A stretch of 64,000 bases of DNA from Escherichia phage IME08. Below, one piece after another: positions 2,645-17,835 of this stretch. Position 1 is the stretch's first letter, and each line of letters starts with the position of its first letter. The notes beneath the pieces are model-generated. The model ran no database searches. It saw only the letters and a program-made list of their open reading frames with translations, and was not told the DNA's origin. The stretch lies in sequence record NC_014260.1; one strand, written 5' to 3'. A program made the translations under genes and the position numbers.

Positions 2645-3136
2645 ATGGAGTTGACAGATATCACTCGTGCATTTGAGTCAGGTGACTTTGCACGCCCTAA
2701 CCTTTTCGAAGTGGAAATTCCATTTCTTGGTAAAAACTTTAGCTTTAAATGTAAAGCAGCACCTATGCCAGCAGGCATTGTAGAAAAAGTACCGGTTGGC
2801 TACATGAACCGTAAAATTAACGTAGCTGGTGACCGTACGTTTGATGATTGGACCATTACCATTTATAACGATGATGCACATGACACTCGTCAAGCAATTG
2901 TTGATTGGCAGAATCTCTGCCATGGTATGACCAATGAAATTACGGGCGCAGCACCTGCAGAATATAAGAAACAAGCAGTAGTTCGCCAGTTCCATCGTGA
3001 CGGCAAGACTGTGACCAAAGAAGTTACAATTTACGGCTTATGGCCTACTAACGTTGGTGAAGTCCAGATGGATTGGGATTCGAACAACGAAGTTGAAACG
3101 TTTGAAAGTACGTTCGCTATCGATTGGTGGGAATGA
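2645..3136 (+). CDS. 19: Tail tube protein gp19
   Basis: Start chosen at second ATG (GAGG RBS 6 nt upstream); about 164 aa, matches recalled T4 gp19 including motif RAFESGDFARPNLF. Confidence 0.9.
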   Translation: MELTDITRAFESGDFARPNLFEVEIPFLGKNFSFKCKAAPMPAGIVEKVPVGYMNRKINVAGDRTFDDWTITIYNDDAHDTRQAIVDWQNLCHGMTNEITGAAPAEYKKQAVVRQFHRDGKTVTKEVTIYGLWPTNVGEVQMDWDSNNEVETFESTFAIDWWE

Positions 3137-3137
3137 G

Positions 3138-3145
3138 TATAAATA
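3138..3145 (+). promoter_or_regulatory. Late promoter TATAAATA upstream of gp20
   Basis: Exact TATAAATA. Confidence 0.55.
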
Positions 3146-3193: not shown

Positions 3194-4768
3194 ATGGCAA
3201 ACTTTAATACAATATTAAGTTTTCTTAAGCCATGGGCTAATGAAGACGAAAAAGAATATAAACAACAAATTAATAACAATTTAGAGTCTGTCACCGCACC
3301 TAAGCTTGATGATGGCGCTCGCGAAATTGAGACACAAGAGCAAAATATTCCTTATAATGCTCTTATGCAACAGATGTTTGGTAGTAATGAGCCTGAAGTT
3401 AAAAATACCAGGGAACTTATTGATACCTACCGTAATTTAATGAACAACTATGAAGTCGACAACGCCGTACAGGAAATTGTGTCTGACGCTATTGTCTATG
3501 AGGATGATAAAGAAGTAGTTGCATTGAATTTAGACGGGACAGAATTTAGCCAAGCAATTAAAGATAAAATCTTGGCCGAATTCAGTGAAGTTTTAAACCT
3601 TTTAAATTTCCAACGTAAAGGCACTGACCATTTCCAACGCTGGTATGTAGACTCAAGAATTTTCTTTCATAAAATTATAAACCCTAAAAAAATGAAAGAT
3701 GGCGTACAAGAGCTTCGTCGCTTAGACCCGCGCCAAGTCCAATATATTCGTGAAATCGTTACACGTATGGAAGATGGTGTTAAAATTGTAGACGGATATC
3801 GTGAGTTTTTCGTTTACGACACAGGTCATGAAAGCTATTGCGCAGATGGACGCATTTATTCAGCCGGGACTAAAGTTAAAATTCCTCGTGCTGCTGTGGT
3901 TTATGCCCATTCAGGATTATTAGATTGTTGTGGTAAAAACATCATTGGCTATTTGCAACGTGCTATTAAGCCTGCAAACCAGCTTAAATTGATGGAAGAC
4001 GCAATGGTCATCTACCGTATTACCCGTGCTCCTGACCGTCGTGTATTTTATATCGATACAGGTAATATGCCTTCACGTAAGGCTGCAGCACAAATGCAAC
4101 ATATAATGAACACGATGAAAAACCGTGTAGTGTATGATGCTTCGACAGGTAAAATTAAAAACCAACAACACAATATGTCCATGACTGAAGACTATTGGTT
4201 GCAACGTCGTGACGGTAAAGCGGTTACAGAAGTTGATACAATGCCAGGTGCTACTGGTATGAGTGATATGGATGACGTTCTTTATTTCCGCACAGCACTT
4301 TACCGTGCACTGCGTATTCCAGAATCACGTATCCCTAGTGAATCTAATTCAGGTGTTATGTTTGATGCCGGTACAGCTATAACTCGTGACGAGTTGAAAT
4401 TTGCTAAATGGATTCGCCAGCTCCAAAATAAATTTGAAGAAATTTTCTTAGACCCATTAAAAACAAACCTCATTCTTAAAAAGATTATTACAGAAGATGA
4501 GTGGGAAAGAGAAATAAATAATATTAAAGTTACGTTCAATCGTGATAGCTATTTCAGTGAAATGAAAGATGCGGAAATCATGGAACGCAGAATCAATATG
4601 CTAACGATGGCTGAACCATTTATTGGTAAGTACATTTCACATCAAACGGCTATGAAAGATTTCCTTCAGATGACTGACGAAGAAATTAATCAAGAAGCTA
4701 AGCAAATTGAAGAAGAGTCTAAAGAGGCTCGTTTCCAAAACCCAGATGAAGAAGAAGAGGATTTCTAA
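3194..4768 (+). CDS. 20: Portal vertex protein gp20
   Basis: 524 aa, T4 gp20 length and order. Confidence 0.95.
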
Positions 4769-5037: not shown

Positions 5038-5465
5038 TGTTCCTTATCCCTGATGATTACGAATTAACTCTTGAAAGCGTAGAGGCCAAAATTCTAGAAG
5101 CACAGGGACGTTTTGCTATTCTTTCTGAAGCACTCGAGAAAAGCGATATAAATAATCTTGTAGAGAACATGATTGCTGATGGTGATATCGATACAGCTAT
5201 TGCCATTGCTTCTTTGAATGAAAATATGGCTCTTAACGAATTTATCGTTAAGCATGTCTCCTCTAAAGGTGAGCTTACTCGTACTAAAGATATTAAAACC
5301 CGTCAACGCAATGCTTATCAAACGACTGGGTTATCTAAAGCAAAACGCCGTCAGATTGCTCGCAAAGCATCTAAAACCAAACGTGCTAATCCGTCTACTC
5401 AAGTACGTGCTGAACGTAAGCGTAAAAAAGCTCGTTCTAAACGTAAAGCCTTTGGACTTAACTAA
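5037..5465 (+). CDS. 68: Prohead core protein gp68
   Basis: 142 aa, basic C-terminus, T4 order. Confidence 0.8.
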
Positions 5466-6100
5466 TGAAACCTGAATTGCTCATCGAACATTGGGGACAA
5501 CCAGGTGAAATTATCGATGGGGTTCCTATGTTGGAATCTCATGATGGGAAAGATTCTGGACTTGCCCCAGGCCTTTATATAGAAGGCATTTTCATGCAAG
5601 CCGAAGTAGTTAACCGTAATAAACGTCTTTACCCAAAACCTATTTTGGAAAAAGCCGTTGCCGATTATATGGCAGAACAAGTTGCTACTAAACAAGCTTT
5701 AGGAGAATTAAATCATCCGCCTCGTGCTAACGTCGACCCTATGCAAGCCGCTATTATTATAGAAGATATGTGGTGGAAAGGTAATGACGTTTATGGACGT
5801 GCACGTATCATCGAAGGTGACCATGGTCCAGGTGATAAACTAGCTGCAAATATTCGAGCAGGTTGGGTTCCTGGTGTTAGTTCTCGTGGTCTTGGTTCTT
5901 TAACCGAAACCAACAAAGGATATAAGCGTGTAAACGAAGGTTATAAATTAACCGTCGGTGTTGATGCAGTATGGGGACCATCTGCTCCTGATGCTTATGT
6001 AACTCCAAAGCAAATTACAGAATCACAAACGGTAGAAACCGATACCAGTGCCGATGACGCCTTTATGGCTCTCGCAGAGGCCATGAAAAAAGCGTTATAA
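5465..6100 (+). CDS. 21: Prohead core scaffold protease gp21
   Basis: 211 aa; T4 order and length. Confidence 0.9.
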   Translation: MKPELLIEHWGQPGEIIDGVPMLESHDGKDSGLAPGLYIEGIFMQAEVVNRNKRLYPKPILEKAVADYMAEQVATKQALGELNHPPRANVDPMQAAIIIEDMWWKGNDVYGRARIIEGDHGPGDKLAANIRAGWVPGVSSRGLGSLTETNKGYKRVNEGYKLTVGVDAVWGPSAPDAYVTPKQITESQTVETDTSADDAFMALAEAMKKAL

Positions 6101-9592: not shown

Positions 9593-9600
9593 TATAAATA
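9593..9600 (+). promoter_or_regulatory. Late promoter TATAAATA upstream of gp24
   Basis: Exact TATAAATA about 28 nt before ATG. Confidence 0.6.
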
Positions 9601-9628: not shown

Positions 9629-10909
9629 ATGGCAAAGATTAACGAATTACTGCGCGAGTCAACAACTACTTCTAGCAACTCATTGGGTCGCCCTAATCTT
9701 GTTGCTTTGACCCGTGCTACAACCAAATTGATTTACCGTGATATTATTGCTGAACAACGTACTAGCCAGCCTATTGCTGCATTGTATGGTGTCAAATATC
9801 TTACCCCTGATAATGAATTCAGTTTCCAAACTGGTGCTGTTTATGGCGGTGAAGTTGGTTCTAAAGACCGTGAAACTATCCCAGAACTCACAGATAAGGC
9901 CCAGGCGATTGCCAAGGGTGAATATTTCAAGTATCAGAATATTGTTTATAAGGCTCTTCAAGCAAGCCCACTCGCATCCACTAGCGCTACAGAATTGGCT
10001 GATGCCCTTCAAGAAGGTTTGGTGTCATTAACATGTCGTCTGGTTCCTGATGCGGCTCACACAGAGAAATTCGAAGCAGGTGATGTTGAAATTAGCAATG
10101 CAGTATTCCAGGTTAATAAATGGAACGCACCTGTTAAGTCTCGTAAACTTAAAACCGCTTTGACTGTAGAACTAGCCCAAGACATGGAATCCAATGGCTT
10201 CGACGCCCCTGCATTCTTAGAAGACCTCCTGGCTACAGTAATGGCAGATGAAATTAATAAAGACGTTCTGCAGTCTCTAATAACTGTATCTAAACGCTAT
10301 AAAGTTACCGGTGTATCTGATAACGGTATTGTCGATTTGTCTTATGACAGTGCTCCGGAATCTGCACGTAAACTTTATGAAATGGTTTGTGAGATGAATT
10401 CTGAAATTCAGAAAACCACTTCTTATTCAGGTACGTTTGTTGTCGCATCTAGTCGTGTAGCTGCAATGCTTGCTGGTTCAGGTTGGTTGAAACATAAACC
10501 AGAAGATGAAGCTTGGCTCCCAGAAACCGCTTATGGTTATTTGATTAACGGATTGCCTGTATTCTGTGATGTTAATAGTCCTTTAGATTATGTTATCGTG
10601 GGCGTTAAAGAAGATTACGGCGGTAATGAAGTGGTTGGTTCTATTTTCTATGCTCCGTATACCGAAGGTCTGGATTTAGACGACCAAGAACATGTTGGTG
10701 CCTATAAAGTTATTGTAGACCCTGATAGTTTGCAACCGGCTATTTCTCTGATGGTTCGTTATGCACTTTCAGCAAACCCATATACCGTTGCTAAAGATGA
10801 TAAAGAAGCTCGTGTTATAGACGCAACTAATATGGATTTAATGGCAGGGCAGAGTAACATGTCTTATCTGCTTGGTGTTAAACTTCCTCCAATTATTTAC
10901 GAGGCATAA
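9629..10909 (+). CDS. 24: Head vertex protein gp24
   Basis: 426 aa; close to recalled T4 gp24 (MAKINELLRESTTT...). Confidence 0.95.
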   Translation: MAKINELLRESTTTSSNSLGRPNLVALTRATTKLIYRDIIAEQRTSQPIAALYGVKYLTPDNEFSFQTGAVYGGEVGSKDRETIPELTDKAQAIAKGEYFKYQNIVYKALQASPLASTSATELADALQEGLVSLTCRLVPDAAHTEKFEAGDVEISNAVFQVNKWNAPVKSRKLKTALTVELAQDMESNGFDAPAFLEDLLATVMADEINKDVLQSLITVSKRYKVTGVSDNGIVDLSYDSAPESARKLYEMVCEMNSEIQKTTSYSGTFVVASSRVAAMLAGSGWLKHKPEDEAWLPETAYGYLINGLPVFCDVNSPLDYVIVGVKEDYGGNEVVGSIFYAPYTEGLDLDDQEHVGAYKVIVDPDSLQPAISLMVRYALSANPYTVAKDDKEARVIDATNMDLMAGQSNMSYLLGVKLPPIIYEA

Positions 10910-12193
10910 ATGAAAAAGATTAATGCATTAATACAAGAATCAACTTTGACGGCGGCCAACCAGGTCGCCCGTCCTAATCTTCTTTCATATACCCAGGCAA
11001 CTAATAAAAGAATTTTTAAAGCCCTTGTTGCTGAACAAAAAACTACTCAACCTGTTGCAGCATTATATGGTGTCCGTGTTTTAAACCCAGACGATAAAAT
11101 GACTTATCTCGGCGGAGCCACTTTTGCAGGCGAAATTGGTATGTTCGAACGTAAAAACATTCCTGAATTCACCGATAAAGACGAAGCATATGCTGTTGGT
11201 GATATGTTCCAATTCGAAAGTGTGGTTTTCAAGGTATTAGAAGCTTCTCCGTTTGCAGGAACAACTGAAACCGATTTGGGCGAAGTTATTTCAGAAGCTA
11301 TTGCCGCAGGCCATATTCGTATGATGTCTGATGCAGCCTTTACCAATAAATTTGAAAAAGGCCATCCTGAGATTGCTGAAGCAGGATTCCGTATTGATAA
11401 GTGGCAGACTGAAGTTAAATCGCGTAAACTTAAAACTTCTTTGACTGTAGAACTGGCCCAGGATTTAGAATCCAACGGGTTTAATGCACCAGACTTTATA
11501 GACAATATTTTGGCTATTCAAATGGCCGAAGAAATTAATAAAGACGTATTACAGTCCTTAATTACGGTAAGTTCTCGTTTTAAAGTCCAAGGAGTTTCCG
11601 AGAAAGGCGTCTTGAACTTAACAGACCCACAATATGATAACGCCCAAGACCGAGCGCGTACCTTGTATTACTATATGTGTGAAATGAATTCTGCTGTTCA
11701 ACGCCAGACTTCGTTTGCAGGTACTTATGCAGTAGCTTCTTCTCGTTGCGCCGCTATTTTAGCTGCATCCGGTTGGGTTGAGAAAAAAGAAGACCAAGAC
11801 GAATTAGCTTATGGCATATTAAAGAACGGTCTACCACTTTATGCTGATATGAATAGTCCGTGTGATTATGTTATTGTCGGTGTAAATGCTCAGATGGGTG
11901 AAGGGCAGACGGTCGCATCTTTGTATTATGCGCCTTATACGGAAGGGCTCGAAGAAGTTGATGATGAAGGTGATACTTCAGTAGGTGAATTCAAGGTTAT
12001 TGTAGACCCAGATTCATTGCAACCTACCATATCTTTATTGGCTCGGTATGCATTGACTGCGAATCCTTATACCGTCGCTAAAGACGACAAAGAAGCTCGT
12101 ATTATTGACGGTGCGGATATGGACAAAATGGCTAATCAAAGTCAATTGAGTTCTTATCTTGGTGTTAAACTTCCTCCACTTGAAAAAAGCTAA
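10910..12193 (+). CDS. gp24 paralog (second vertex-protein-like gene, diverged)
   Basis: 427 aa colinear with gp24 along full length but substantially diverged; start ATG directly follows gp24 stop. Confidence 0.9.
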   Translation: MKKINALIQESTLTAANQVARPNLLSYTQATNKRIFKALVAEQKTTQPVAALYGVRVLNPDDKMTYLGGATFAGEIGMFERKNIPEFTDKDEAYAVGDMFQFESVVFKVLEASPFAGTTETDLGEVISEAIAAGHIRMMSDAAFTNKFEKGHPEIAEAGFRIDKWQTEVKSRKLKTSLTVELAQDLESNGFNAPDFIDNILAIQMAEEINKDVLQSLITVSSRFKVQGVSEKGVLNLTDPQYDNAQDRARTLYYYMCEMNSAVQRQTSFAGTYAVASSRCAAILAASGWVEKKEDQDELAYGILKNGLPLYADMNSPCDYVIVGVNAQMGEGQTVASLYYAPYTEGLEEVDDEGDTSVGEFKVIVDPDSLQPTISLLARYALTANPYTVAKDDKEARIIDGADMDKMANQSQLSSYLGVKLPPLEKS

Positions 12194-12205: not shown

Positions 12206-12412
12206 ATGGTAGATGAAACCCTGTTTGGTCATGACGGAAGAGGCAACTTTAGTGGCAAATCCTTAATTCAGCCAGAAGAGTCTATTATAATTCCGTTTTC
12301 GAACATCAGAATTTCTACAGAAAAGATAAAGTTAAATGAAGTTGAAGTTAACAATTTAGCAAAAAGTATTTTAGAATCAACAACCCAAGAAGAGGTTCAT
12401 AGTGTGTTTTAG
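12206..12412 (+). CDS. Small ORF A (68 aa) with N-terminal LFGHDGRG motif; probable N-terminal segment of the collagen-like protein
   Basis: ATG with AGGAG RBS; ends at TAG 12410-12412 three codons after the collagen-like frame opens. Confidence 0.5.
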
Positions 12413-13602
12413 GAATAAACAATTCCCAGATAGAGCCAATAGAGGGTCCGCCGGGCCCTCAAGGAGACCCGGGCCCACAAGGTATTCAAGGCCCGCCCGG
12501 CCCTCAAGGAGACCAAGGTCCACAAGGTATTCAAGGCCTTAAAGGAGATAAAGGAGATACAGGTCCACAAGGTATTCAGGGCCTACAAGGACCCAAAGGA
12601 CCTAAAGGAGACCAGGGTCCACAAGGCATTCAAGGGCCTATAGGTCCTATAGGTCCCGCAGGGCTAATATGGAAAGGAGAATGGGATGTAGATACACTTT
12701 ACTCTGTCGATGATGCTGTTGGATATGCAGGTGCATCATATTTTTGTATAGCCGAAAATACCGGTAATATACCCACAGAATCGCCGGAAAACTGGGCCTT
12801 ATTAGCATCGCAAGGAGCTAGAGGAGAATCAGGGGCCCAGGGCCTACAAGGACCCAAAGGGGATAAAGGAGATACGGGTCTTCAAGGTATTCAAGGACCC
12901 AAAGGGGATAAAGGAGATACAGGTCTTCAAGGACCTATAGGGCCTATAGGACCTAAAGGAGACCAGGGTCCTCAAGGTTCTAGAGGTATTCAAGGTATTC
13001 AAGGTCCCCAAGGAGACCAGGGCCCACAAGGTTCTAGAGGTATTCAAGGTATTCAAGGACCTCAAGGAGACCAAGGTCCGCAAGGCCTTCAAGGACCCCA
13101 AGGAGATAAAGGAGAGGATGGATTCGGAATTGATTCTAAAATAAGTGGGGTATATAAAATTCCTGCATCCGGAACCAAAGGACAATTTTATATAAACTTA
13201 CCTGGGGCAGGTGGTCTTAGATTGATTGTATCAACGGCTGGGACAGGTAATGCTGTTAAAATAGGATACGGAGGTAACTCTAGCACTGTTCAAAGAACAT
13301 TTACTATAGGATATAATTTAACAGCTAATTATACCGATTTGGCAAAAATAAAAACCGGTAGGATAAATTATACAGGGTATACTTCGGTTTCATATAGTAG
13401 CGATACAACGGCTCTAGTCGGATATGGGGATATGTATACAGCAATAGCCTCTAATAAAGATACTTTAGATTCATGGCATATAGTAATATCAGGCGTAGTG
13501 GCAAAATCATCTGCTTCGGCCACTGATGGAAGATTACTTATATCTGTAACTAAAGTTTTTGATTCCGAAACTCAACAGATTCAAACAGGTGAAATATATT
13601 AA
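12403..13602 (+). CDS. Collagen-like fibre protein (two Gly-X-Y blocks, CBM5/12-like linker, C-terminal globular domain); no canonical start codon
   Basis: Continuous open frame of about 400 codons; 24 and 34 Gly-X-Y triplets; first ATG/GTG/TTG in frame is TTG at 13222. Confidence 0.75.
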
Positions 13603-13608
13603 AACATA

Positions 13609-13626
13609 AAGGGCCGCAAGGCCCTT
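13609..13626. terminator. Bidirectional hairpin terminator between collagen-like gene and rnlB
   Basis: AAGGGCC-GCAA-GGCCCTT perfect stem between convergent genes. Confidence 0.6.
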
Positions 13627-13631
13627 ATCAT

Positions 13632-14639
13632 TTATTTGGATACTAGTTCAATCCAAACATGTCTTAATGTTTCTTTTACACACTCAATGAGCTGCTTTTT
13701 AACTTCAACAGGATTTTCAGCGTCAGTTAATTCTAATTCTTCACGGGCAGCTTCTTCAAGGATATCTTGGACCGTCAAGCCCATTACCTTTCCAAAATCC
13801 TTTTTGGAAACTTCGCCAATCTTACTGATAACATTGTTAATACGGTTAACAGTCACATAATCAGTGAATTGCCACATCAAATCCATATCGTCTTGGGATA
13901 AAACTACCGCAGCCTTAATAGGCTTATCAGACTTTTTCTTCTCGCTGAATTTAGAGTTCTTACATTTAATCGCTACACGATTTCCGTTTGGAAGCCAGGT
14001 AGGAATATCAGGTTTAAGTACAAAGCCTTCAGCCGTGAATACTTTACCTTCTACCTTAGGAATAAAGTCTGTAGAGTTTGCAATAGTTAGGCCGGCGTTA
14101 TCCACCGCAAAATTATAATCAGGAATAACTGAATCAAAGTCATTAGGTAATTTAATAAGGTCTTCAAAGCTACCTGTAGCCAGACATGGGGCTACCTTAA
14201 ACTTATGGATAATACAGAAGGCTTCCATCAATGTATCGGTTAGAACAGATTCTGAACCGTCTTCCTTAGTAACTCGGATATCGAACACATAAAAGTCTTT
14301 ATCACCGTAGTCCACATTCTTCTGGATACCTGGTCCAGCGAATTCGCCATAAATCTGGTACGACTGATAATTAATCGATTCAATTAGATGTTGAACAGAT
14401 TTAATAGAATCAGCATAGTTCTTAAGTACAATTTCATAACCATAGAAATCTTCAGCAGGGAGGATAGGGCCAGTGCGCTTGGCGCATGTGACTGCGTCAC
14501 GTTCTATGATTAAACTAAAGTTGGTCCCGTGAATCTTCTCACGTGCAACCCATTCACCACCAGTCAAACCGTTGATACGGAGTTTTTCGATAAACTTACT
14601 GTTGTAGTGGTTTTCGAGACTGCTATATTTCTTGAACAT
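13632..14639 (-). CDS. rnlB: RNA ligase 2 (RnlB, gp24.1)
   Basis: 335 aa; matches recalled T4 Rnl2 N-terminus [16 protein letters not shown] and KIHGTN nucleotidyltransferase motif. Confidence 0.93.
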
Positions 14640-14753
14640 AAATCACCATAATAAATATAATTAAATAGAAGAGCTAGTATTCTTCTGTCACCAAGCCAAA
14701 TGGTTTAACGGAAGGACCTAGACCCATTATAACACATCTAAATTTAAAGCATA

Positions 14754-14963
14754 TTACTTTGAACTAGAACGCGCTTTGCGCCGAACCTTGTTGTTCAATC
14801 TTTTACGATAGACAATCTTTTCTTTCGCTTTAAATTTGGCCTTAGCATTCTCAACTTCGGTCCAAGCTTTAGCCATATCTCTGGCGGTTCCGCCAATCTT
14901 TTTAGCAATATCAATAAAATTCATACCCGATTCATGTAAAAAATGTACTTTAATCTTATCCAT
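14754..14963 (-). CDS. Small basic protein (24.2/24.3-like), possible DNA-binding
   Basis: 69 aa ORF preceded by early promoter; lysine/arginine-rich C-terminus. Confidence 0.5.
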   Translation of the reverse strand: MDKIKVHFLHESGMNFIDIAKKIGGTARDMAKAWTEVENAKAKFKAKEKIVYRKRLNNKVRRKARSSSK

Positions 14964-14991
14964 AACAATTCTCTTGTGATTTGACTATTCA

Positions 14992-15021
14992 ATAATAACA
15001 TGAGAATTTTAACTTGTAAAC
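14992..15021 (-). promoter_or_regulatory. Early promoter GTTTAC-N18-TATTAT
   Basis: Minus strand GTTTACAAGTTAAAATTCTCATGTTATTAT. Confidence 0.5.
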
Positions 15022-15031
15022 AGGAGATTTT

Positions 15032-15106
15032 ATGCCAGACAATCCATTATACGGGCATGACGGTAGAGGTGTATCATTAGAACTCACTAGTGAAAGCACC
15101 TTTTAA
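15032..15106 (+). CDS. Mini-ORF B (24 aa) sharing the LYGHDGRG N-terminal motif with ORF A
   Basis: ATG with CAGGAGA RBS; MPDNPLYGHDGRG...; two in-frame stops before the Hoc-like ATG. Confidence 0.35.
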   Translation: MPDNPLYGHDGRGVSLELTSESTF

Positions 15107-15115
15107 GGAGGTTAA

Positions 15116-15982
15116 ATGATTGCACTTAAAATAAATGGTCCTAGATATGAATTGGTTGGTAAGACTGTAACGTTGTATACCGCATTTGTATTACCAGCAG
15201 GTTTGACTCTAGATGATATAGAAATTAATTGGTATAAAAATAATGTCCATGTCCCACAACTTCCTATTGAAGACCCTTTTGAATTGAATTTATGGGATGT
15301 TGGATATCCGGCGGCAGGAACATTTTATGCAACTATAACAAACAAGAAAAGTGGTGAAATAACAAAGAGTAATGAAATAGAACTTGAAATAGGTGTCATT
15401 CCAAGAAGAGTAATCCTGGATATAAGCTCTAGGGAATTAATATATGCCGATATAGGAGAAACCGTTTCACTTCGCCCGTCGTGTAGAGTAGAACCTACTT
15501 ATGCCGTACGTGATTGTAGATGGTATAGAAATGGAGTAGAATTATCTAACGATGAAGATATTGATATAACAATAGATAGTTCTGATAAATTCGGTACATA
15601 CATGTTGAAATCTATAGCGACCTGCGAAGGAGCGTATATCCCTGCTTCTGAAGAACTTTTAGTTGAAATAAAACCTAGAGGGGGTGTATTGCAGTGCCCG
15701 TTCATATATGATAACGACCTTAATGCCTATTTACCATATGGCGGCGGAAGAAATGAATCTTATATGTGGATAGGTTGGTGGGTGTGGGACGAAATAAGAG
15801 AAGCCGTTAGATTAGGAGAAGATTGGACGTTGGATATAAACAACAGCCGTTACAAGTATAAATGTGAGTTACAAAAAGTAGCCGACCTTTTGTCTAAGTA
15901 TCATGAAGTAGAGATACAAGAATCTAGAAACGGATATATTCTGGGGCGTAAAGACTTGCTTTATGTTCCGCCTGTACCATAA
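15116..15982 (+). CDS. Hoc-like capsid decoration protein paralog (two Ig-like domains plus Hoc-type C-terminal capsid-binding domain)
   Basis: C-terminus ESYMWIGWWVWDEI...EVEIQESRNGYI parallels Hoc SAYIWCGWWVMDEI...EVDVQESRNGRI; AAGGAGG RBS. Confidence 0.85.
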   Translation: MIALKINGPRYELVGKTVTLYTAFVLPAGLTLDDIEINWYKNNVHVPQLPIEDPFELNLWDVGYPAAGTFYATITNKKSGEITKSNEIELEIGVIPRRVILDISSRELIYADIGETVSLRPSCRVEPTYAVRDCRWYRNGVELSNDEDIDITIDSSDKFGTYMLKSIATCEGAYIPASEELLVEIKPRGGVLQCPFIYDNDLNAYLPYGGGRNESYMWIGWWVWDEIREAVRLGEDWTLDINNSRYKYKCELQKVADLLSKYHEVEIQESRNGYILGRKDLLYVPPVP

Positions 15983-15990
15983 AAAAATAA

Positions 15991-16012
15991 AGGGACCCGA
16001 AGGTCCCTTTTT
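15991..16012. terminator. Bidirectional terminator between Hoc-like gene and hoc
   Basis: AGGGACC-CGAA-GGTCCCT hairpin with T-run on both strands. Confidence 0.65.
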
Positions 16013-16014
16013 AA

Positions 16015-17148
16015 TTAATAAACGTAATCGTAAATAATTCCAGCATCCAAAGCGGTTCTGTGAATAATTCTACCATTACGAGATTCCTGTACATCAACCT
16101 CCGGATAGTCAGTAATCATTTTTTGAAGAGTATAACGATGGAGATAGAAATCACTATCAGGGTCATCGGTTTTCCAGTCTTTGCCTTCAAGAGTCATTTT
16201 CTGGATTTCGTCCATAACCCACCAACCACACCAGATATAAGCTGAATTGCGAACTGGTAGCGGATGAACGTAAGGTAGTTCGCCCTCTGGAACTGGTGCG
16301 ACTTTAGCCGTGACTGTTACATTACCAGTTTTGGTAACAGTCGTAGGGTTATAATCGGCGGCCGAAACAACAGCAGAAACTTCAATAACCTGTGAACCTT
16401 CAGCGCTTGTGTCAATTACTAATGTATCTGTAGCACCCACAACAGGTGAACCGTCTTTCTTCCAAGAATAAGCAAAAGTGGCACCACTAGGCGCACCTGC
16501 TACGGTAGCTTTAAAAGAAGCCGGAGTTCCTTCAGGTACATTAATAGAGGCTGGCGTTAAATTAACAGAAACCCCAGACATTGTTTTCTTAACAAAAGAA
16601 ACCGTTACGCCTTTAGCAGCAGTTGCTGAACCGTATTCCGGAGAGGTAACAGTAACTTCACAATTCAAGGTATAATTTGCTTCGGCTGCTTCAGTTAGTG
16701 TAATAGTTTTAGAGGTTTGGCCTGAAATTACGGTGGTATTTCGTTTCCAAACATAATTAATTGTTGCACCAGCAGGAGCACCGGTTACATTAGCCGTAAC
16801 AACTTGGGATTGGCCGACTTCTTTAGAAACGGAAGTAGGGTCCAAAGCCAAAGAGATATCCATAGTTTTATTAGATACAGTAACTTCAAAGGTGTCTTCG
16901 GCTGTCTCAAGAGGACCCGCATCGCCAGGGTCAGAAGTTACTACTACTTTTATAACTTTCTTACCCGCAGGAGCAGCACCCGTATATCTCAAAACATTAG
17001 TGGTTTCTGGGTTAGCAGCTCCATCAACGGTCCATACATATGCAATGGTTCCACCTGTTACAACTGCGTCGGTTGCGGTAGCAGTGTAGTTAGCGCTTTC
17101 GCCTATTTTCATAGACGCTGCGCCGGCTATACTTACAGTAAAGGCCAT
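16015..17148 (-). CDS. hoc: Highly immunogenic outer capsid protein Hoc
   Basis: 377 aa; near-identical to recalled T4 Hoc C-terminal half (LPYVHPLP...YIWCGWWVMDEIQKMT). Confidence 0.92.
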   Translation of the reverse strand: MAFTVSIAGAASMKIGESANYTATATDAVVTGGTIAYVWTVDGAANPETTNVLRYTGAAPAGKKVIKVVVTSDPGDAGPLETAEDTFEVTVSNKTMDISLALDPTSVSKEVGQSQVVTANVTGAPAGATINYVWKRNTTVISGQTSKTITLTEAAEANYTLNCEVTVTSPEYGSATAAKGVTVSFVKKTMSGVSVNLTPASINVPEGTPASFKATVAGAPSGATFAYSWKKDGSPVVGATDTLVIDTSAEGSQVIEVSAVVSAADYNPTTVTKTGNVTVTAKVAPVPEGELPYVHPLPVRNSAYIWCGWWVMDEIQKMTLEGKDWKTDDPDSDFYLHRYTLQKMITDYPEVDVQESRNGRIIHRTALDAGIIYDYVY

Positions 17149-17157
17149 AGTTTACCC

Positions 17158-17835
17158 TTATTTTAAAGTGACAAAAGATGAATTACGCGTTTCACGTACT
17201 AATACTGAGCCATTACGATTGATGTAATAAATCAGACTGAATAATGTTTGGTGGGCTGAAGGATGTTGGAAATCTTTAGGACGTTCTTTCCAATCAGGGG
17301 TTTCAGAAATCCATTGATAAATCCACCAAGGAACAGTACAGTAACCTGGGTTTTTACCAATAAGCAAAAGATTGGGACTAAAGTTTTCAGGGAGTTCAAA
17401 TTTAGGTTTTTCTGATTCTTTAACCAAGGTTATAGCTTGATTGAATTTCTCTTCGACAAACGGAACAACTTCTTCAATAATCTCGACCTTAGGAAGTTCG
17501 ACTACCTCAACGACTTCAACTACAGCCTCAGGGGCATCGAACAACAGGGTTGCTTCTTCTTTAGCAGGTTCGGCTCCATCAATAAATTCATTAGAACCTG
17601 TAAGTTCGTCAGCAGCATCAATCAAATCAGAAATGGACAAACCTTCGGTTTCTGGAAGTGGTTCGTCGGCCAGGGCTTTAAGACCTTCAGTGATATCGAT
17701 AATCAAATTATCAAACGAACGGGTTTTCTTAAGTTTTAAACCGAACTGTTCGCCGTATTCGATTAACTTAGCTTTAGCTTCTTTTTTATCTTCGAGTGCA
17801 CGAAGCTCTTCAATATATTGGCGGTCCATAATCAT
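17158..17835 (-). CDS. inh: Inh-like protein (inhibitor of prohead protease), acidic
   Basis: 225 aa between hoc and uvsW as in T4; assignment by position and size only. Confidence 0.55.
   Translation of the reverse strand: MIMDRQYIEELRALEDKKEAKAKLIEYGEQFGLKLKKTRSFDNLIIDITEGLKALADEPLPETEGLSISDLIDAADELTGSNEFIDGAEPAKEEATLLFDAPEAVVEVVEVVELPKVEIIEEVVPFVEEKFNQAITLVKESEKPKFELPENFSPNLLLIGKNPGYCTVPWWIYQWISETPDWKERPKDFQHPSAHQTLFSLIYYINRNGSVLVRETRNSSFVTLK

Follow-up and report, generated by a model that had tools for sequence, protein, structure and literature searches.

In the window analysed here, a 64,000-nucleotide stretch of Escherichia phage IME08 (sequence record NC_014260.1), two short plus-strand open reading frames (ORFs), termed ORF A and mini-ORF B (ORF B for short), begin with nearly the same peptide, which contains the motif GHDGRG. 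The phage is a Dhakavirus, i.e. a JS98-like T4-type coliphage, and the question raised by the locus is why two separate ORFs of the gp24-hoc region should share such a beginning. The sequence-only reading, made from the DNA letters, had offered a common cassette junction, a conserved leader peptide, or a recombination or targeting site as answers. We found that the motif is a conserved protein N-terminus, that ORF B is a deletion remnant, and that ORF A is the first part of a frame-split gene, named gene A below. Taken as a whole, it is very probable that the motif marks the start of a collagen-like fibre gene, of which ORF A and ORF B are copies decayed by a frameshift and by deletion, respectively, and not a leader or a recombination site. 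The coordinates of all features are collected in Table 1.

A conserved N-terminus of collagen-like fibre proteins

In the six-frame translation of the window, GHDGRG occurs twice, and so does the fuller pattern M.D..[LIVM][FY]GHDGRG, at 12206-12244 and 15032-15070. At the DNA level, the core GGKCATGACGGWAGAGG matched only at 12227-12243 and 15053-15069 when up to two mismatches were tolerated, the two copies being identical at 15 of 17 positions; 0.02 matches were expected, and none of 100 shuffles gave two or more. When the N-termini of all 441 ATG-initiated ORFs of at least 20 amino acids in the window were compared (97,020 pairs), 9 of the first 14 residues were common in two pairs only, namely ORF A with ORF B and the paralogues gp24a with gp24b. 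Both ORFs have AGGAG 5-6 nucleotides upstream of ATG, and both end in TTT and a stop codon followed by GAA or GGA. The shared motif and the strong ribosome-binding sites that had been noticed by eye are thus real, and so are the similar endings. The latter, however, proved to be a coincidence as a common feature: in ORF B, the ending is a native C-terminus (...STF and stop) followed by the Shine-Dalgarno sequence of the downstream Hoc-like gene hoc-2, and in ORF A it is the product of a frameshift.

It had been proposed to look in related T4-type genomes for fused versus split arrangements. This comparison was run, and in ten relatives the motif opens one contiguous gene of 239-609 codons: CLB_P2, dhabil, JS10, ABTNLsp5 (Dhakavirus), CGG4-1 (Gelderlandvirus), Cronus and FBB1 (Roskildevirus), Aeromonas phage 65 (Emmerichvirinae), GomatiRiver_11 and Pantoea phage Phynn. 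The very place of ORF B, between gp24.3 and the plus-strand Hoc-like gene, is taken in CLB_P2, dhabil and JS10 by a full-length gene (335-501 codons), which starts with M[SA]D..[LI][YF]GHDGRG and continues into collagen G-X-Y repeats. The motif is therefore the start of a domain of about 75 residues (hereafter the N-domain), which runs straight into the first collagen repeat and has the conserved features [FY]GHDG[RL]G.[FY].G..L, IPF..IL, YG...L and A..[HY]LGIT.EML.PG. ORF A belongs to this family over its 68 residues, all of which align with the N-domains of the ten relatives, while ORF B holds residues 1-13 and fragments of the rest. As for a cleaved leader or signal peptide, the segment in the relatives is a part of the 75-residue domain that goes on into the collagen repeats; the reading as a detached leader is not supported, the small ORFs having arisen by deletion (B) and frameshift (A). 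The architecture of the family is an N-domain, collagen triple-helix repeats with CBM5/12-like inserts, and a variable C-terminal knob. One member, that of Phynn (L057 3489-5061), has the N-domain MNEVGHDGLGNFYG... fused straight to the common C-terminal domain with no collagen repeats.

The N-domain is the part that unites the family, a small one encountered in T4-type phages only. In BLASTP comparisons it matched 20 family proteins with E values of 1e-9 to 1e-16, and when 21 family proteins were compared pairwise, the N-domain similarity was significant in all 210 pairs and that of the C-terminal parts, which fall into at least five classes, in 85. A profile search of 1.84 billion representative proteins, with ORF A and the remnant from phage PspYZU05 (see below) as the query, gave 15 matches; the domain started at residues 1-4 in every one of them, and 13 were collagen-like proteins of 155-610 amino acids. 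The DNA pattern for [FY]GHDGRGx[FY]xG had 41 matches in 241 million metagenome records, one of which was a real member (on a 180-kb T4-like contig), and a scan of IMG/VR with the N-domain alignment returned Cronus, PspYZU05 and CGG4-1 only. No match to the N-domain was found in PHROG, Pfam or PDB. Across 13 genes, only the first and second codon positions of the motif are invariant and the third positions are free, arginine being encoded by AGA, CGA, CGT or CGC; hence the conservation is at the protein level and not at the DNA level.

The deletion remnant and the frame-split gene

The 24-residue protein of ORF B is MPDNPLYGHDGRGVSLELTSESTF. A global alignment with the corresponding stretch of CLB_P2 (L001) accounts for the entire ORF. 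Window positions 14996-15070, comprising the upstream region, the ribosome-binding site and the first 13 codons, correspond to CLB_P2 2985-3059 with one mismatch and no gap; positions 15071-15080 correspond to 3072-3081, positions 15081-15100 to 3121-3140, and position 15101 onward, which runs from the last codon and its stop through GGAGG into the Hoc-like gene, to 4521 onward. Compared with CLB_P2, ORF B lacks stretches of 12, 39 and 1380 nucleotides, all in frame, the longest of which was deleted at an AGCAC microhomology. What is left amounts to 23 codons of the N-terminus plus the final codon with its stop; the body is absent, so that no single frame leads from the N-domain into a collagen region and a C-terminal domain. 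The upstream part of the segment 5' of ORF B is identical to that of phage IME341, and the deletion junction itself had no match in any phage record. The reverse order of events, an insertion into an ancestral mini-ORF, was considered and rejected as not parsimonious: the insertion would have to create a domain homologous across phage subfamilies. We propose that a resident CLB_P2-type fibre gene located 5' of hoc-2 lost its entire body through in-frame deletions and thereby became ORF B, which probably survived because its two ends would hold the expression signals of hoc-2, namely the promoter and ribosome-binding site on one side and the native stop ahead of the hoc-2 Shine-Dalgarno sequence on the other.

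ORF A has a different history. It is read in frame 2 and ends with ...EEVHSVF and a TAG at 12410-12412. In frame 1, a TAG at 12400-12402 is followed by an uninterrupted run of 399 codons, in which the first possible start (ATG, GTG or TTG) does not come before 13222. The break sits within the conserved [HY]LGIT motif of the family. If two nucleotides are removed from aGTGTGTTTT, the translation can be aligned gap-free with the family motif A.HLGIT.EML.P, which reads EGALAHLGITNEMLTP in CLB_P2. Gene A thus has no contiguous reading frame, being interrupted by a -1 break at 12401-12409; the simplest reading of its cause is the insertion of a GT dinucleotide, the alternative being the deletion of one nucleotide. 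An intact gene A would read GTGTTTT here, in place of GTGTGTTTT. The claim that both small ORFs precede a larger decoration-type gene consequently stands for ORF B, which is followed by hoc-2, and falls for ORF A, since the collagen frame is ORF A's own continuation.

Collagen G-X-Y repeats form the body of gene A together with a CBM5/12-like insert and a globular domain at the C-terminus. The Pfam Collagen family (PF01391) is matched at 12403-13599 with a score of 100.8 bits (E 3.6e-29), the gathering threshold being 27.2, and PHROG 5073 with an E value of 7.8e-106. The same elements make up the body of gp011 of the Certrevirus CR3, to which residues 83-464 of gene A are 45% identical over 399 amino acids (E 4e-93). 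The resemblance does not extend to the N-terminus: the PHROG 5073 match begins at residue 75 and leaves the GHDGRG N-domain outside, and the N-terminus of CR3 gp011 is different and shorter. In a targeted comparison, that N-terminus, GVYFGYALYDLVNEKLIPFDQI (L058 2060-2200), was weakly like positions 12-38 of the T4-type N-domain (12.7 bits); it is without GHDGRG and without the second half of the domain, and a profile comparison gave a weak, positionally congruent G.[FY].G..L...IPF..I. The resemblance may reflect a shared ancestral fibre N-terminus.

Gene A lies between the gp24b stop and the rnlB terminator, and hoc-2 does not follow it directly, the terminator standing next. At the same site, the Roskildeviruses have a complete module of fibre gene and hoc-2, while IME341 has the terminator only. 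On our proposal, gene A would be a chimeric second copy, in which a T4-type N-domain was joined to a Certrevirus CR3-like collagen body and inserted between gp24b and the rnlB terminator; this copy would then have been broken inside LGIT by the frameshift, giving ORF A and an open frame with no start. In this phage, production of the fibre is probably absent. The collagen region at 12448-13113 also contains recent tandem duplications with periods of 45 and 54 nucleotides, in 2-3 copies each at 77-97% identity, and has a guanine plus cytosine (GC) content of 0.45-0.51 against about 0.38 in the flanks. A PDB sequence search with the C-terminal domain of gene A returned only compositional matches to light-harvesting proteins, which we rejected as spurious, and the AlphaFold2 model of this domain alone had a predicted local distance difference test score (pLDDT) of 37.

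Decayed copies are also found in relatives. IME341 (L003 3334-3500) retains the promoter and ribosome-binding site, the fragment AGCACCTTAG and 62 nucleotides of the N-domain at 89% identity with a one-nucleotide gap; its deletion extends past hoc-2 to the downstream terminator region and is independent of that in the window. PspYZU05 (L011 3995-4260) has a 49-codon GHDGRG remnant, after which ...QTKEQALDHLGITR, with the LGIT motif (ALDHLGIT), follows in another frame, and its Hoc-like gene is truncated to 132 amino acids. In Aeromonas phage AP1 (L012 3995-5500), a 78-codon N-domain remnant enters a block of opposite-strand genes, and no hoc-2 comes after it. Two further observations concern these genomes: PspYZU05 has a homing-endonuclease gene between gp23 and gp24, and the AP1 block includes a 330-residue ORF that resembles, by eye only, a CCA-adding or poly(A)-polymerase enzyme.

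Pairing with hoc-2 and the predicted place of the fibre

The gene that follows ORF B is intact and belongs to a lineage of its own. The window hoc-2 matches PHROG 1149, the group of Hoc-like head-decoration proteins (E 1.9e-42), is 88% identical to hoc-2 of CLB_P2, and its protein is 38% identical to that of phage 65 over 283 amino acids (E 4e-54), the hoc-2 proteins being orthologous over their full length. With the Hoc-1 protein of the same window, Hoc-2 shares 29% identity, aligned over residues 114-281 only, and its last 70 residues can be aligned with the Hoc-1 proteins of both the window and phage 65. It thus differs from T4 Hoc and from second Hoc-like proteins in being a distinct orthologous lineage paired with the GHDGRG fibre gene.

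The pairing is strict. Among 50,697 phage records, the N-terminal half of Hoc-2 matched 22 and the fibre N-domain 26, and all 22 are included in the 26; the four N-domain records with no Hoc-2 match are remnants (AP1 and PspYZU05) and Phynn. At all ten annotated loci, the two genes are on the same strand and the distance from the fibre stop to the hoc-2 start ranges from an 11-nucleotide overlap to an 11-nucleotide gap, the genes overlapping in phage 65, GomatiRiver_11, FBB1 and Phynn. In the window, hoc-2 follows immediately after ORF B, the native stop of which lies 9 nucleotides before the hoc-2 ATG, and it has its own perfect Shine-Dalgarno sequence, TAAGGAGGT. These results show that the fibre gene and hoc-2 are a strictly linked module. 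In Phynn, the gene overlapped by the fibre gene is a diverged hoc-2, annotated as 'capsid vertex protein'. Of the proposed common cassette, the homology of the N-termini holds, as does the notion of a mobile unit recurring beside head-decoration genes; the junction reading has given way to one of gene decay.

In phage fibres, the attachment end is generally kept and the distal end swapped. By this rule, the N-domain would be the part that anchors the collagen trimer to the virion, and the invariant pairing together with the location among head genes makes Hoc-2 or the capsid the likeliest docking point. We therefore put forward, tentatively, that the N-domain may attach the fibre to the capsid, either via Hoc-2 or next to it, and that the C-terminal knob would serve as a variable adhesin. 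A more specific picture, which we regard as doubtful, is a two-component head fibre, in which Hoc-2 on the hexamer would hold the collagen-like trimer by its N-terminal peptide, with a fibre swap in progress in this phage: the resident fibre would have been deleted and a chimeric one with a Certrevirus-type knob gained at a new site, the frameshift in the GT repeat being either recent decay or an on/off switch.

For a collagen fibre mounted on a phage head, gp12 of SPP1 offers a precedent, being a collagen-like trimer on the centres of capsid hexamers, as cited in PMC7602432. We found no sequence relationship between gp12 and the present family, though no test aimed at one was made; gp12 binds the capsid directly, without a Hoc-like partner, whereas capsid binding of the present family is a prediction. 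Phages with two Hoc proteins have been noted (Fokine et al. 2023, PMC10385173), with no collagen partner mentioned. In the literature on T4-type phages that we searched, there was likewise no mention of a collagen-like partner of Hoc or of a fibre/hoc-2 pairing, and a fibre/hoc-2 module with an unannotated N-domain apparently is undescribed there.

Competing readings and the setting of the locus

Several points weigh against the interpretation of the two ORFs as decayed copies of a head fibre gene. The collagen frame is open for all of its 399 codons in an AT-rich genome, which means that the break is very recent, is a sequencing error, or is bypassed somehow. The ancestral sequence at the break was deduced from proteins of about 30% identity only, no close relative of gene A having been found: the exact DNA pattern across the frameshift site had no matches in IMG/VR and none in metagenomes, a scan of IMG/VR for close relatives gave none, an exact look-up of ORF A in assemblies gave no record, and when ORF A, the N-domain alignment and the C-terminal domain of gene A were used in word-indexed protein searches, these gave only ORF A itself and the PspYZU05 remnant. 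Hence there is no close relative with an intact or a split gene A for comparison. The AlphaFold model of ORF A, built on a 14-sequence alignment, is of low confidence, with a pLDDT of 68 (51-63 over the motif) and a predicted template modelling score (pTM) of 0.34. All three gaps of ORF B are multiples of three, which might indicate selection on a small ORF, although two of the three may predate the inactivation. As for the place of the fibre, Hoc-2 is only the predicted partner of the N-domain, and the alternative is a location on the tail or neck; the family proteins are annotated as tail fibres in GenBank, and in CR3 the gene homologous to the body belongs to a tail-fibre cluster and is not beside hoc.

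Of the competing readings, the one that survives best is that gene A is in fact intact, the two surplus nucleotides at 12401-12409 being an error of sequencing or assembly, or else a variant found in the sequenced stock alone, so that a full 464-residue fibre would replace the deleted resident one. The 399-codon open frame speaks for it, and so do the joining of ORF A and the body exactly inside the conserved LGIT, the retention of an intact hoc-2, and the recent date of the insertion, as the 98.7%-identical IME341 has no gene A. Nevertheless, we consider it unlikely: a two-nucleotide insertion giving GTGTGT is atypical of homopolymer errors, decay is common in the relatives, and a 68-residue protein identical to ORF A, with the same stop, is recorded in a metagenome-derived set (P0001), though this record may not be independent of the present sequence.

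Somewhat less probable still is that the short ORFs are functional as they stand, ORF B serving as a translated upstream ORF that couples ribosomes to hoc-2, or a free N-terminal peptide binding a partner in the virion. The in-frame gaps of ORF B, its strong ribosome-binding site and its native stop so close to the hoc-2 ATG would fit such a role, as would the overlap of the two genes in four relatives and the recurrence of short N-terminal remnants in other phages. However, hoc-2 has a perfect Shine-Dalgarno sequence of its own, IME341 has lost the start of the domain, and the remnants vary in length and content, with none conserved between phages; moreover, they were found by a search with the N-domain, and their recurrence is subject to ascertainment bias.

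Programmed recoding, in which a -1 frameshift or a P-site slip at GUG-UUU-UAG would yield both a 68-residue N-domain and the full-length fibre, is very improbable. Programmed -1 frameshifting of phage structural genes is known from the G/GT type of phage lambda, and gene A resembles that system in having two overlapping frames of a late structural gene in a -1 relationship, with a UUU codon before the stop, an intact downstream frame and a local RNA fold slightly more stable than shuffles (z = -1.9). It differs in what would be needed for slippage. Read directly from the sequence, the overlap (U_GUG_UUU / G_UUU_UAG) contains no slippery heptamer X_XXY_YYZ, tRNA-Phe could re-pair with GUU at two of three positions only, and the stable GC hairpin starts about 32 nucleotides after the ORF A stop instead of the 5-9 expected of a stimulator. 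The split is not conserved either, as all full-length relatives are contiguous across the motif and the sole other split copy, in PspYZU05, is plainly degraded. Three other routes into the collagen frame were tried and rejected: in bypassing of the T4 gene 60 type, translation would resume out of frame at the sole UUC landing codon downstream; a +1 shift on UUU_U enters a 46-codon non-collagen frame; and reinitiation finds no start codon in frame 1 ahead of 13222.

That the motif is instead a DNA-level element (a cassette junction, recombination hotspot or homing target) directing the insertion of decoration genes is hardly credible despite the 15 of 17 matching nucleotides and the hyperplastic state of both loci, as it is effectively refuted by the free third positions and differing arginine codons, the nucleotide conservation following the coding, and as the motif lies 21 nucleotides inside the coding sequence, the insertion boundaries are the gp24 stop and terminator and the 24.3 promoter region, and the window shows no neighbouring nuclease or integrase gene.

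Table 1. Features of the gp24-uvsW region in the window (positions in nucleotides of the window).
Feature	Position	Strand	Remark
gp24a	9629-10909	+	
gp24b	10910-12193	+	
ORF A	12206-12412	+	68 amino acids; N-terminal (GHDGRG) domain of fibre gene A, ended by a TAG made by the frameshift
GHDGRG motif, copy 1	12227-12244	+	
Frameshift site aGTGTGTTTT	12401-12409	+	overlap of frame 2 (ORF A) and frame 1 (collagen body)
Collagen-like open frame	12403-13602	+	body of gene A; -1 frame relative to ORF A
Terminator hairpin	13609-13626	both	bidirectional, common to gene A and rnlB
rnlB	13632-14639	-	
gp24.3-like gene (DUF2774)	14754-14963	-	
Upstream region and AGGAG ribosome-binding site of the resident fibre/hoc-2 module	14996-15031	+	conserved, matches CLB_P2
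Mini-ORF B	15032-15106	+	24 amino acids; in-frame deletion remnant of a CLB_P2-type fibre gene
GHDGRG motif, copy 2	15053-15070	+	
hoc-2 (Hoc-like gene)	15116-15982	+	intact
Hoc (Hoc-1)	16015-17148	-	
inh	17158-17835	-	
uvsW	17886 onward	+	

As regards the setting of the locus, identity to IME341 is 98.7% over 4 kb from uvsW onward and about 96% in the flanks of the region. The tandem gp24 paralogues at 9629-12193 are annotated likewise in JS98, JS10 and other relatives. A match to the late-promoter consensus TATAAATA is found at 9593, shortly 5' of gp24a, and together with the terminator at 13609-13626 it encloses gp24a, gp24b and gene A; immediately 5' of ORF A or ORF B, no match to this consensus was found. 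A scan for sigma-70 promoters did no better than shuffles. At 14992-15020 on the minus strand, a good sigma-70-like promoter (TTTACA, a 17-nucleotide spacer, TG, TATTAT) points toward gp24.3; it overlaps the upstream region of ORF B, so that the 68-nucleotide intergenic region probably serves divergent transcription. Directly 3' of hoc-2, the window has a terminator at 15989-16010. CLB_P2 (5424-5627) and IME341 (3480-3760) have in common a segment of about 280 nucleotides with a small ORF and its own terminator, situated between hoc-2, or its former place, and hoc-1; the window is without this segment.

With these results, the hyperplastic gp24-hoc region of the window can be annotated with a pseudogene remnant, a fibre gene broken by a frameshift, and a hoc-2 that is intact. 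For the family, collagen-like fibres strictly tied to a Hoc paralogue in several T4-type genera are marked by a narrowly distributed N-domain that has no counterpart in Pfam, PHROGs or PDB. If the fibre does mount on the head via Hoc-2, the pair would be a natural two-part capsid display system, with implications for how phages adhere to mucus or cells and for display engineering based on T4.

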